Below, piece by piece: positions 45,391 through 50,590 of a stretch of DNA of 64,000 nt. The translations under genes were made by a program, and so were the position numbers. Source of the DNA: Candidatus Poribacteria bacterium (lineage in GTDB: Bacteria > Poribacteria > WGA-4E > WGA-3G); assembly GCA_963667805.1 (NCBI GenBank), contig OY764016.1:2077381-2141380 (forward strand). Direction: 5' to 3'. How positions within the stretch are numbered: the first letter of the stretch is position 1; each line of letters opens with the position of its first letter. The notes below the pieces were generated by a model, which saw only the letters and a program-made list of their open reading frames with translations, did not search any database and had not been told where the DNA came from.

Positions 45391-46023
45391 GTGCTTAATG
45401 TGTGTATGCTTTCCGGTTCCTTTGAGTACGACTCCGAGGCATCCTTGACGATTTTCAAAACCTTTGTTGAAAAACACTATCCGATCCACGCGAATTTAGT
45501 CGTCTACAATTCAGAAGATCACGATCCCGCTTTAGGAGCGTTAGCGGATGCAGATGCGCTATTGGTTTTCACACGCCGTCTGAACACAGAGGGTGCCTCA
45601 CTGAAACAATTTCAAGCCTACTGCGACCAAGGCAGACCGCTCGTTGGGGTCAGGACAGCCAGCCACGCCTATCAAAACTGGTTGGAATTCGATAAAACCG
45701 TGCTCGGGGGCGACTATCAAGGGCATTACGGTGAAGGGCCTCCCACGCAGGTGGAATTGATTGATACGGAACATCCCATCCTGAACGGCATTCCAGCGTT
45801 TGACTGTTATGGCAGTCTCTACAAAAACCCATCACTTCGCGACGATACCTCTCTACTCTTGATGGGACACACGGACGAACATTCAGAGCCTGTCGCATGG
45901 ACGCGTTTGCATAATGGTGGACGTATCTGTTATACTTCATTAGGGCACCAGAAAGATTTTGAAGTAGAACCCTTTTTAAGAGTCCTCGCGCAAAGTATCT
46001 TGTGGGTAGCCGAACAGATATAG
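45391..46023 (+). CDS. ThuA-like (class I glutamine amidotransferase-like) domain protein
   Basis: LVGVRTASHA, HPILNGI, PVAWT...GGRICYTSLGH. Confidence 0.8.
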   Translation: MLNVCMLSGSFEYDSEASLTIFKTFVEKHYPIHANLVVYNSEDHDPALGALADADALLVFTRRLNTEGASLKQFQAYCDQGRPLVGVRTASHAYQNWLEFDKTVLGGDYQGHYGEGPPTQVELIDTEHPILNGIPAFDCYGSLYKNPSLRDDTSLLLMGHTDEHSEPVAWTRLHNGGRICYTSLGHQKDFEVEPFLRVLAQSILWVAEQI

Positions 46024-46049
46024 GCAAAGATTCAAGGCATTTTGGAGAC

Positions 46050-47309
46050 ATGGAAACCCTTACAATTCTGAATGGCGACATCTACACCCCCACGCATCAT
46101 GGACAGGGGAGCATCGTCATTCAAGACGACAAAATTTCAACGATAACCTCAGAAGCACTGCAGCCATCGGGAGAGACCATTGATGCCGCTGGATGCCTCG
46201 TCATTCCTGGATTGATTGATGGATTGGTGCACGGTGGCGGTGGCTATGATAGCATGACCGGGCACGTTGAAGACGTTGCGACAATCACACGCGCCCATGC
46301 GCGTAGCGGTGTTACCTCGTTGGTGCTGGGAATCTCCTCGGGCAGCATGACACAAATCAACAATGCCTTAACCGCTATTGCACACGTCGTTGACGAACCT
46401 GTAGCGGACGGTTCGCGGATTTTAGGGTCCTACGTGGAAGGAAAATTCGGGAGTCTCGCCAAAAACGGGGCACAGAACGCAAAATACATTACACCTCCGA
46501 ACTTCGAAGAATTCCATGCAATGTGGGCGGCTTCCGATGCGACTTTAAAGGTAATCTCCGTCGCACCAGAAAACGATGACAATCTGCAGTTTATCAAGCA
46601 TCTCGCGGCCTTTAAAGCAGATGCCTATAATAACATCGTTATCGCGATGGGACACACAAACGCCACATATCAACAGGCAATCGATGCGATTGACGCAGGC
46701 GTGACCCGCGCCACCCATACTTATAACGGTATGAGTGGGCTGCACCACCGCACCCTCGGCGCCATTGAAGCAGTCCTTTCCCATCCAGACATCCACGCAG
46801 AACTCATTGTCGATGAGCACCATGTCCATCCTTTTTGGGGAAATACCCTCATTCAACAAAAAGGCGTTCACGCCGTTGGGTTAATTACAGACTGCACAGA
46901 ACTCGCCGGTGTCCCCACAGAAGAATGGCAAACTTCGGCAACATACCTCCCCGAGCTGGATGCCTATCGCCTCAATGAAGATGCGATCTCCCAACACGAC
47001 ACAACCTTTGAGCGGCATAGGACCGAGAAATACATCCGCAACGGAGCGATGTGGTTAGATGTAGGAAAACCCACAGAACGCCTCGCAGGTGCGACAATTA
47101 CATTGATGGAGGGTGTCCGTAACGTCATCAACTGGGGACATTCCATAGAAGCCGCTTTAACGATGGCGACTTTGACGCCCGCGCAAAATTTAGGCGTTGC
47201 AGATTCGGTGGGTTCAATTGCAACCGGTAAAACGGCAGATATCGTTATTGTTGACGAAAATTTGAGCGTTCAAACCGTTATTTTAGGCGGAAAAGTGATA
47301 AAAAAGTAG
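46050..47309 (+). CDS. nagA: N-acetylglucosamine-6-phosphate deacetylase family amidohydrolase
   Basis: PGLIDG.VHG, VEG, SVAPE, GHTNA, THTYNGM, HVHP, LITD, LAG, TPA..LG, G..ADIV. Confidence 0.82.
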   Translation: METLTILNGDIYTPTHHGQGSIVIQDDKISTITSEALQPSGETIDAAGCLVIPGLIDGLVHGGGGYDSMTGHVEDVATITRAHARSGVTSLVLGISSGSMTQINNALTAIAHVVDEPVADGSRILGSYVEGKFGSLAKNGAQNAKYITPPNFEEFHAMWAASDATLKVISVAPENDDNLQFIKHLAAFKADAYNNIVIAMGHTNATYQQAIDAIDAGVTRATHTYNGMSGLHHRTLGAIEAVLSHPDIHAELIVDEHHVHPFWGNTLIQQKGVHAVGLITDCTELAGVPTEEWQTSATYLPELDAYRLNEDAISQHDTTFERHRTEKYIRNGAMWLDVGKPTERLAGATITLMEGVRNVINWGHSIEAALTMATLTPAQNLGVADSVGSIATGKTADIVIVDENLSVQTVILGGKVIKK

Positions 47310-47356
47310 AAAATTCGCAGAATTCCAATCTTTTTCGCTTTTTTTTCAAAATAAAT

Positions 47357-47385
47357 TTGACACAGCCCAATTTATTGTGTATAAT
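47357..47385 (+). promoter_or_regulatory. Consensus sigma70 promoter of the str operon
   Basis: TTGACA (47357-47362), 17-nt spacer containing TG, TATAAT (47380-47385). Confidence 0.88.
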
Positions 47386-47491
47386 ATTAGTTTTGGAAAC
47401 CCTAATCAATCTTTTTAGAAACGAGGGGGCAACTACGGAAACATTCTAACGTCGTACCTAAAATTCAGCGTTAATGTGTTGAAGTTACAAT

Positions 47492-47517
47492 GCCCCGCGC
47501 GGGGCTTTTTTCTTTTT
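47492..47517 (+). terminator. Intrinsic-terminator-like hairpin within the rpsL leader
   Basis: GCCCC-GCGC-GGGGC followed by TTTTTTCTTTTT, about 40 nt before the rpsL ATG. Confidence 0.6.
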
Positions 47518-47555
47518 ATCAGAAACCCATAGATATATCATCGCGGAGGTCCGAA

Positions 47556-47927
47556 ATGCCAACAATTAATCAATTAATCAAGAAACCGCGCAAAAAGTCC
47601 CGGAAAAAGACCAAATCTCCGGTACTCGAGCAGTGTCCTCAGCGGCGCGGTATCTGTTTACAAGTGAAAACAGTAACACCGAACAAACCGAATTCGGCAT
47701 TGCGTAAAGTTGCTCGAGTGCGGTTCACCTCTGGCTACGAAGCTACCTGTTACATTCCGGGGATTGATCACAATCTGCAAGAACACTCAGTCGTTTTAGT
47801 CCGAGGTGGGAGAGTCAAAGACCTCTCTAATGTCCGCTACCACATCGTCCGCGGCAAATTAGATACTGCAGGTGTTGATAACCGTCGTCAAGGTCGTTCA
47901 AAATACGGTGCACGGAAACCGGCTTAA
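47556..47927 (+). CDS. rpsL: 30S ribosomal protein S12
   Basis: MPTINQL start behind GGAGG; [22 protein letters not shown]. Confidence 0.98.
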
Positions 47928-47945: not shown

Positions 47946-48416
47946 ATGCCGAGACGTGGAAACATCAGCAAACGGGATGTCAGTCCTGACGCGAAATATA
48001 ACAGCAAGCTGGTGTCAAAATTCATCAATAGCCTCATGTTAGATGGCAAGAAAAGCACTGCGCAATCAATCTTATATGAGAGTTTTGAGATTATTGAATC
48101 CCGGGCGAAGGAAGATGGTTTCGCCGTGTTCCGTCAAGCAATCAACAATGTCAAACCCGTGTTAGAAATTAGACCCCGGCGTGTAGGCAGCCAGACCTAT
48201 CAAGTGCCTGTTGATGTAAAAGCAGAACGAAAACAGCGATTGGCTTTTAGTTGGATTATTCAATCCGCTCGTTCGCGCGGCGAAAGGCGGATGGCAGAAC
48301 GTCTCGCAGGTGAAATACTTGAAGCATCTCAGAACGAAGGTGGAGCGATTCGCAGAAAAATGGATCAGCATCGAATGGCGGAAGCGAACCGAGCTTTCGC
48401 ACATTATCGATGGTAA
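47946..48416 (+). CDS. rpsG: 30S ribosomal protein S7
   Basis: MPRRG...DGKKS...[10 protein letters not shown]. Confidence 0.98.
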
Positions 48417-48472
48417 AAAATGCGTTACGGCTGAGAGCCGAAGCGTTAACACAAAAAAGGAGTCGTCCAATC

Positions 48473-50590
48473 GTGGCGGAGAAAAAAAATAGCAACCCCC
48501 AACGCTTAGAATTGCCCCACATGCGAAATATCGGTGTCATGGCACATATTGATGCCGGGAAGACCACTGTCACTGAACGCATTCTCTATTATACCGGTAA
48601 ACTTTATCGGATCGGAGATGTGGACGATGGCACCACTGCCATGGATTGGATGGTGCAAGAACAGGAACGCGGCATTACGATTACTGCCGCCGCAACAACC
48701 TGTCAGTGGAAAAAACACCAAATCAATATCATTGATACACCGGGGCATATCGACTTTACCGTCGAAGTCGAACGCTCACTTCGCGTCCTCGACGGCGCAG
48801 TCGCAGTTTTTTGCGCAGTTGGTGGCGTTGAACCCCAATCTGAAACTGTTTGGAGACAAGCAGATAAATACGATATACCCCGAATCGCGTTCGTCAACAA
48901 AATGGATCGAACCGGTGCCGATTTCTTCCGAACGGTTGAAATGATGGAAGAACGCCTCGGTGCTCCAGCGATCCCCGTGCAACTTCCTATCGGGTCAGCA
49001 GAACAATTCACAGGAATCGTCGACCTCATCTCCATGAAGGGGCAGATCTGGAATGTCGGAACAGATGCCGGCAGCGATGGCACTGTCATCCAAGAAACAG
49101 ACATCCCCAGAGAAATGGAAGACATGGCGACTGAATATCGCGAGCAGCTGTTAGAGGCTATCGCCGATCACGACGAAGTGCTTATGCTTAAATACTTGGA
49201 TGGTGTCGAAATTTCACCGGAAGAGATTAAAGCAGGCATACGAAACGCTGTTCTTAATGGAAAGGTTGTCCCTGTTCTCTGCGGCACCGCTCTGAAAAAT
49301 AAAGGCGTCCAACCGCTCTTAGACGCGATTGTCTCCTACCTACCGGCACCCACCGACGTGCCGCCTGTGGTAGGCTTTAATCCGAAGACTGAAGAAGAGG
49401 AAACACGTGCTGCAAAGGATAGTGAACCCTTCTGTGCATTGGCGTTCAAAATCATGACGGATCCTCACGTTGGCAAACTTACCTACTTACGGGTGTATTC
49501 CGGTATCCTCCAGAAAGGCGATACCCTCTACAACAGTACAACTGGAAAACACGAGCGGATTGGTCGATTAATGCAGATGCACGCCAACAAACGGGAAGAA
49601 CATCAAGCTGTTCACTCAGGCGACATCGCTGCAGTCATCGGGTTAAAAGACCTCTCAACGGGGGATACGCTCTGCGATCCGAAGGCACATATCACCTTAG
49701 AAACGATGGTGTTCCCGTTGCCGGTGATGTCTATCGCTATTGAACCTCGAACGCAATCCGATATCGATAAACTGAACCTCGCCCTCTCGAAACTCGCTGA
49801 AGAAGACCCGACCTTTAAAGTGCATCAAGACAGTGAAACAGGACAAACATTGTTGTCCGGTATGGGTGAGCTTCATCTCGAAATCATCGTTGATAGACTC
49901 GTGCGTGAGTTTAACGTCTCAGCGAATGTTGGCAATCCGCAAGTCGCCTATCGGGAAACGATCCGTAAAGCCGTTAAATCCAGGAAACGTTTCGTGCGTC
50001 AATCCGGGGGTAGAGGTCAATTTGGAGACGTTACGATCGAGGTCGAACCCCTTGAAAAAGGATCAGGCTTTGAATTCATTGACGAAACCAAAGGTGGCGT
50101 TATTCCGCAAGAATACATCCCCGCAGTGCAGAAAGGCATTGAGAACGCGATGAACATAGGAGTCTTAGCAGGCTACCCGGTCGTTGATGTATTAGTCAGA
50201 CTCGTAGACGGTTCACATCACGCCGTAGATTCATCAGAAATGGCGTTCTCCATAGCAGGTTCTATGGCGTTTAAAGACGCACTAAAGAGTGCTACACCGA
50301 CGCTTCTCGAACCGATTATGGACGTTGAAGTTATTGTTCCTGACGAATACCTCGGTAAGGTCATAGGCGACCTGAATTCACGGCGTTCTCAGATACGTGA
50401 AACCGAAACGCAAGCAAAATCTCGTATTCAAGTTATTCGTGTTGATGTCCCGCTTTCAGAAATGTTTGGGTATGTCAAAACACTTAGGTCACTCACACAG
50501 GGTAGAGCCAATTACTCTATGGAGTTTGCACATTATAACGAAGTCCCAACAAGCGTGATGGAAGATTTAATTTCATCAGCGAATCGTTAA
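48473..50590 (+). CDS. fusA: Elongation factor G
   Basis: GTG at 48473 behind AGGAG; [30 protein letters not shown]. Confidence 0.98.

Follow-up and report, generated by a model that had tools for sequence, protein, structure and literature searches.

The gene for ribosomal protein S12 (rpsL) in the window, by which we mean the whole 64,000-nt stretch of DNA that was analysed, encodes Asn, Ser and Asn at positions 42, 90 and 91, where E. coli has Lys, Pro and Gly. Our main reading, to which we assign a probability of roughly 0.65, is that this is a native, vertically inherited rpsL of sponge- or coral-associated Poribacteria; as Lys42 contacts streptomycin and K42N suffices in every species tested, the ribosome is most likely insensitive to the drug by nature. 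The changes form two layers: an ancient remodelling of the interface between S12 and 16S rRNA (Asn91, Ser, Pro or Ala at position 90, and three 16S covariations), followed by recurrent turnover at positions 42, 85, 87 and 90. Two numberings are in use for S12: that of the mature E. coli protein (42, 85, 87, 90, 91), and that with Met = 1, in which the same positions are 43, 86, 88, 91 and 92. The following features of the locus are used below.

47545..47549, forward strand: Shine-Dalgarno sequence GGAGG for rpsL, read from the sequence, 6 nt before ATG 47556
47556..47927, forward strand: rpsL, bacterial uS12, 123 aa (TIGR00981 match, 209.1 bits, cut-off 112.95)
47682..47684, forward strand: codon 43, AAC, Asn (E. 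coli K42N), read from the sequence; gives TPNKPNSA at the lysine site that contacts streptomycin
47811..47819, forward strand: codons 86-88, AGA GTC AAA, Arg-Val-Lys (E. coli R85, V86, K87), read from the sequence; canonical here, with 85 and 87 being hot spots in relatives
47820..47822, forward strand: codon 89, GAC, Asp (E. coli D88), invariant with 0 parsimony changes; the RimO target in other bacteria
47826..47831, forward strand: codons 91-92, TCT AAT, Ser-Asn (E. coli P90S, G91N), read from the sequence; gives [10 protein letters not shown]
47946..48416, forward strand: rpsG (uS7), the next gene of the str operon (TIGR01029, 208 bits)
48410..50590, forward strand: fusA (EF-G), an open reading frame with the AHIDAGKTT motif

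The alignment to TIGR00981 (rpsL_bact) is full-length, covering residues 1-122 of 124 profile positions. The listed open reading frame (47490-47927) is longer than the gene, whose real start is ATG 47556 after GGAGG. Both the str operon order rpsL-rpsG-fusA and the copy number identify the gene as uS12: the closed 5.51-Mb genome holds one rpsL, and no second copy was found in it. The genome also has a single 16S gene and hence a single rrn operon. Upstream of rpsL lies a 246-nt leader (47310-47555), preceded by a nagA-like deacetylase gene at 46002-47309 (TIGR00221, 234 bits); rpoB and rpoC do not stand ahead of rpsL and the str operon starts on its own. The first ATG in the fusA frame gives a 7-nt overlap with rpsG and approximately 37 extra residues ahead of the conserved [15 protein letters not shown] (window 48410-48530), and the true fusA start is probably downstream of it.

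We aligned the window S12 without gaps to the E. coli S12 sequence and found 77 of 123 residues identical, which places the three changes at K42N, P90S and G91N in mature E. coli numbering. The substitutions that an earlier note had listed as K43N, P91S and G92N are thus real and can be read directly from the DNA. K42N is the textbook case of a costly, hyperaccurate streptomycin-resistance mutation. With Lys42 replaced by N, the window S12 has the residue that defines the K42 class of streptomycin-resistance rpsL alleles. In Klebsiella the sole non-dependent alleles of high-level resistance that were recovered are K42R, K42N, K42T and K87R, with an MIC above 1024 ug/ml (PMC4182516), and K42N lowers misreading (PMC6547416); the description of K42N as a high-level, error-restrictive resistance allele is therefore well documented. 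The same description cannot be extended to the second loop. The substitutions documented to cause dependence (P90L/Q/R/W and G91D; PMC4182516, PMC3884664), among them the P90L/Q/R and G91D alleles that make Klebsiella streptomycin-dependent (PMC4182516), are absent from the window S12, which carries Ser90 and Asn91, so that the assignment of these two changes to the resistance or dependence type is not supported. The term aminoglycoside-insensitive was also too broad, as the drug concerned is streptomycin and K42R leaves susceptibility to 2-deoxystreptamines unaltered (PMC2916820).

To place the three residues in the phylum we used the 176 GTDB species genomes of Poribacteria, in 170 of which S12 could be read. 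Position 91 is Asn in 168 species and Gly is left only in two deep genera. At position 90 we counted Ser in 115 species, Pro in 42 and Ala in 13. At position 42, 77 species have Asn and 75 have Lys; the remaining ones carry Arg (12), Thr (4) or Ser (2). Asn91 is therefore a signature of the phylum and Ser90 a signature of several families. Among the 170 species Asn42 is confined to the window's family (f1), where it occurs in five genera: in all species read of four of them (g9, g10, g12, g13) and in 33 of the 63 species read of the window's own genus. On a FastTree of rpsG and fusA, the two genes adjacent to rpsL that served as a proxy for the species tree, the change from K to N falls at the base of f1 and the window lies within a clade of 20 species that all have N. 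The 16S identity between the window and the other N42 genera is only about 92-94%, which indicates that the N42 state is old. The codon for Asn42 is AAC in most species and AAT in several; the use of both codons shows that the amino acid, not one particular mutation, has long been maintained, and Asn42 is thus retained by purifying selection. An identical S12 protein is encoded in at least six other species-level assemblies.

Judged by these sequence comparisons, N42, S90 and N91 are inherited states, neither errors nor recent mutations. The argument that three clean in-frame changes speak against sequencing error was borne out by the recurrence of the same protein in other assemblies and by the two Asn codons. 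The expectation that the changes might be fixed held for N91, which is nearly so, and failed for S90 and N42, which are not fixed across the phylum. Nor are they a private adaptation of this genome, given that N91 is phylum-wide, S90 is present in about two thirds of the species and N42 dates from the base of the family. As 43N is the wild-type state in the 77 species that make up the bulk of f1, and 43N belongs to the eight-mutation panel of a recent survey (10.64898/2026.06.09.731231), we class it as a lineage-fixed intrinsic rpsL variant of the resistance type. A number of metagenome S12 proteins (P0038, P0055, P0093 and similar; 124-126 aa) have V(P/S/A)PKKPNSA together with KDLSNVRY, are 75-81% identical to the query and match no genus among the 170 genomes; Asn91 may extend to lineages beyond the GTDB Poribacteria. 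Family f8 has a second loop of its own, GG(N/R)VRDLPNVGY, with Asn or Arg at 85, Arg87 and Gly at E. coli R93.

Outside the phylum these residues are rare. In a sample of Pseudomonadota codon 42 specified Lys in 148 of the 150 matches listed and Arg (CGN) in the other two. Across 148 matches of the second loop R85, P90 and G91 were present in all, and K87 in 145 (three Arg). The patterns used require conserved neighbouring codons and therefore miss divergent genes (no match in 13 of 161 and 60 of 401 genomes); within that scope, residues other than K at 42 amount to 95/170 in Poribacteria compared to 2/150 in Pseudomonadota (Fisher p=5e-31), and residues other than G at 91 to 168/170 compared to 0/148 (Fisher p=1e-90). 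We also scanned one genome per species across 185,579 species for DNA encoding P-N-K-P-N-S/T-A-L-R-K. The scan returned 90 stretches; among the 80 matches listed, Poribacteria account for 65, genuine rpsL genes from other phyla for 10 and sequences outside rpsL that match by chance for 5. Those 10, again among the matches listed, are each a single species: three Anaerolineae, a Chloroflexia, a Saccharibacteria with N42 and KDLTGVRY (Thr90, G91 kept), Streptomyces aureus NRRL B-1941, Nocardia inohanensis, two proteobacterial MAGs and an Acutalibacteraceae. In the cultured strains S. aureus NRRL B-1941 and N. inohanensis NBRC 100128 the N42 stands in an otherwise canonical S12 and could be natural or a spontaneous resistance mutation of the sequenced stock.

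A published screen of 15,721 species detected intrinsic rpsL residues of the resistance type in 7.6%, nearly all of them 88R or 43R, and concluded that alleles other than the cheap 43R and 88R do not persist in nature (Ngo, Letten & Engelstadter 2026, bioRxiv 10.64898/2026.06.09.731231). Only 7 species had other variants (43N, 43T or combinations) and Poribacteria go unmentioned. A family-level clade in which 43N is fixed is an outlier to that low-cost rule. Our literature search for Poribacteria and streptomycin returned nothing relevant.

The other wall of the pocket is 16S rRNA. The gene of the window's genome is located as follows.

G000:C1:4148791-4150340 (L173 1501-3050): 16S rRNA gene of the window's genome; relatives are L174-L233

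This 16S and 30 more of the genus differ from the upper-case consensus of RF00177 (Rfam) by U13A/U20C/A915G, C18A/G917U and G505A/C526U. All of these changes are compensated: the 13.20.915 triple goes from U.U.A to A.C.G, the 18-917 pair of the central pseudoknot from C-G to A-U and the 505-526 pair of the 530-loop pseudoknot from G-C to A-U. A13, A18 and U917 occur throughout the phylum and C20/G915 almost throughout; at 505/526 most genomes have A-U, several families G.U and three genomes G-C. Inspection of the 16S thus revealed compensated departures in just those elements that wall the streptomycin and S12 pocket. Streptomycin contacts C526 and G527 and binds less well when the 912-915 region is mutated. 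Powers and Noller reportedly found in 1991 that E. coli becomes resistant when G.U wobbles are present in the 505-526 pseudoknot.

The 16S pocket states are identical in the N-, K- and R-type species of the genus and do not track position 42. They belong with the old N91 layer and not with the turnover at position 42. As to U526 and N91, the sole G91 genome with a 16S (G049) has C526, and so do the N91 genomes G026 and G043. The compensated 16S changes agree with the proposal of a re-tuned decoding centre; hyperaccuracy is an analogy only.

Several further features of the 16S genes were observed. The Poribacteria changes explain why the sites of primers 27F, 515F and 907R/926R are mismatched. 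In family f8 (L215, L222-L225) an A1409-U1491 pair replaces C1409-G1491 at the base of the h44 decoding site. Genome G088 has a second 16S gene with a fully canonical pocket (G088:C232:2644-4201, L204) beside one of Poribacteria type (L232); the canonical gene is most likely bin contamination. Weak SSU matches of about 1.8 kb (533-546 bits) occur in G092:C2 (993-47110) and G004:C2 (37199-39009, 63222-65032). In G092 they form six repeats with a spacing of 8,859 bp, and this array looks like eukaryotic (host?) rDNA binned with the bacterial genome.

We also examined enzymes that modify the decoding region. The gene for the m7G527 methyltransferase, rsmG, proved intact on inspection in the window's genome (TIGR00138, 151 bits, cut-off 99.5; G000:C1:113653-114249) and is present in 40 of 41 relatives; loss of rsmG as a co-factor, which would give low-level streptomycin resistance, was rejected on the intact frame and its 151 bits. 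No RimO match above the cut-off was found in 41 genomes, the window's and 40 related ones, and the MiaB/RimO family is represented in the window's genome only by MiaB (480 bits) and MtaB (426 bits) (G000:C1:976234-977547, G000:C1:2419080-2420327; L331, L330). With RimO absent, S12 probably lacks the methylthio group on its invariant Asp88.

In order to locate the variable positions we counted Fitch parsimony changes for every S12 column (Met = 1) on the rpsG and fusA tree. Recombination may inflate or deflate such counts, which were at least 14 at position 43, 17 at 86, 9 at 88, 11 at 91 and 2 at 92. Zero changes were counted at P42, K44, P45, N46, S47, A48, G84, G85, V87, D89, L90 and V93. 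The variation of S12 is centred on the classical positions of streptomycin resistance and dependence within otherwise frozen loops. K42 is replaced by N, T, R or S, and by I in unbinned metagenome proteins; K87R occurs too.

Arg42 always goes together with K85, R87 and A90, a combination found in genus g1 (10 species) and family f3 (two genera). Within g1 the R-type and K-type species are mixed as close sisters on the rpsG and fusA tree, and K42 has apparently been regained there. For the five R-type alleles of one g1 subclade we compared the number of differences to their own K-type sister and to the R-type of the other subclade, segment by segment and with the variable codons 86, 88, 91 and 92 removed.

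rpsL codons 71-100: 47 differences to own K-type sister, 24 to other subclade's R-type
rpsL flanks: 87 differences to own K-type sister, 147 to other subclade's R-type
rpsG: 117 differences to own K-type sister, 352 to other subclade's R-type
fusA: 203 differences to own K-type sister, 757 to other subclade's R-type

Core segment and rpsL flanks differ in this respect with a Fisher p=2e-5, computed over five non-independent allele pairs and with a tree from linked genes. Such a mosaic would be expected from an exchange of the R42/K85/R87/A90 core among species through homologous recombination of short tracts. The rpsL gene tree with five codons removed is too short to settle whether the R-type is monophyletic.

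There are several ways in which these observations could fit together. As K42N alone is sufficient for an MIC above 1024 ug/ml in enterobacteria, the lost contact of Lys42 with streptomycin most likely leaves no productive binding of the drug. Decoding accuracy and speed have probably been re-balanced by the co-evolved changes in S12 and 16S, so that the ribosome would not be hyper-restrictive like that of fresh laboratory mutants. Hyperaccuracy from N42 is only an analogy (PMC6547416), and S90, N91 and the 16S changes may cancel it; because the state has been fixed for so long, any such effect is probably buffered. A pocket in which Lys is replaced only by residues of resistance alleles viable in the laboratory (N, T, R, S, I; K87R), in which K seems to return and through which the R-type core has spread suggests recurrent selection, and the selecting agent could be a natural product that binds the pocket or shifting optima of fidelity. 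The 16S changes shared by K- and N-types may already make all members insensitive, in which case N42 would add nothing to resistance and need another explanation.

One such explanation, which we regard as possible though doubtful, is compensatory co-evolution independent of any drug. Early G91N, P90S or P90A and the 16S changes would have altered the interface between S12 and rRNA; K42 would then have been freed, or forced, to change for speed or accuracy, and streptomycin insensitivity would be a by-product. Epistatic compensation is a serious alternative driver because in laboratory genetics a change at K42 can suppress dependence mutations at P90 within the same gene (PMC3884664). The phylum-wide 16S pocket changes and N91 precede all changes at position 42, the constant company of R42 with R85K, K87R and P/S90A indicates strong epistasis, and a single rrn operon is expected of a slow grower that is able to afford restrictive ribosomes. 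However, many lineages (f2, f6, f9, f10) with the same N91, S90 and 16S background retain K42; f2 in particular keeps it with S90/N91, and hence N42 is not required by that background. The apparent regain of K42 within g1 speaks against this explanation as well, the substituting residues are exactly the drug-resistance set, and neutral compensation does not predict that the R-type core spreads between species.

A somewhat weaker candidate, which we put forward tentatively, is an ongoing arms race in sponge holobionts. A metabolite that binds the pocket, streptomycin-like or of an unknown class, would select N42, T42, S42 or R42/K85/R87/A90 on the background of Asn91 and the remodelled 16S (13/20/915, 18/917, 505/526); the alleles would be lost when selection relaxes and passed between species by short-tract homologous recombination. 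A recent acquired mutation, of the spontaneous K42N kind known from clinical and laboratory isolates, is highly improbable, and so is an assembly error or miscalling of bases: K42N is one nucleotide away from AAA or AAG and the sporadic N42 of Streptomyces aureus, Nocardia inohanensis and single MAGs looks like such events, but here the changes lie in three separate codons, the identical protein is found in at least six other assemblies, and the species distribution, with N42 written in both Asn codons in 77 species and five genera at 16S identities to the window down to about 92%, rules it out.

Returning to a native rpsL and a ribosome insensitive by nature, we note that intrinsic S12 residues of the resistance type are an already known phenomenon (10.64898/2026.06.09.731231). 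New are the fixation of the costly 43N in a large clade, the replacement of the invariant P90 and G91, the matching compensated 16S and the alternation of alleles with recombination. Poribacteria thus offer a natural experiment on how a decoding centre is rebuilt, on how the price of restrictive alleles is offset and on whether resistance alleles of a ribosomal target circulate by recombination in uncultured symbionts. The allele sets (N-, K-, T- and R-type S12 with the three 16S covariations) can be transplanted into laboratory ribosomes. For the enrichment or cultivation of Poribacteria, streptomycin would be either useless or usefully selective.

Among known systems the closest are the K42N (K43N) alleles of E. 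coli, Salmonella, Klebsiella and mycobacteria, which have the same substitution of the same residue in the TPKKPNSA loop. In those species it confers an MIC above 1024 ug/ml and less misreading (PMC4182516, PMC6547416). There K42N is a fresh single mutation on a canonical background and carries a cost (fitness about 0.82); in Poribacteria it is fixed in at least 77 species together with S90/N91 and an altered 16S. The clades with intrinsic 43R or 88R (Sphingomonadales, Rickettsiales, Devosiaceae, Coriobacteriia, Planctomycetia; 10.64898/2026.06.09.731231) resemble Poribacteria in that their variants are lineage-fixed, vertical and phylogenetically clustered. They have settled on low-cost residues, whereas Poribacteria fix the costly 43N, alternate N, S, T and R with R87, and replace P90 and G91.

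The P90 and G91 dependence alleles (P90L/Q/R/W and G91D of E. coli, Klebsiella and Thermus) affect the same positions of KDLPGVRY, in the loop that packs against h44 and the decoding site (PMC3884664, PMC4182516). Unlike those, Poribacteria have Ser and Asn (Ala in the R-type) as natural states of free-living organisms, and streptomycin dependence of Poribacteria is implausible. The rpsL of Saccharibacteria (N42, KDLTGVRY) shares with the window Asn42 and a residue other than Pro at 90, but retains G91 and belongs to a different phylum. On the rRNA side, resistance mutations at 505-507/524-526, 912-915 and position 13 lower binding in E. coli and M. tuberculosis, and Poribacteria differ at 526, 505, 915, 13 and 20. 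In contrast to those single disruptive mutations, the Poribacteria changes are compensated (A505-U526, C20-G915, A18-U917) and lineage-wide, with a G505.U526 wobble in some families.
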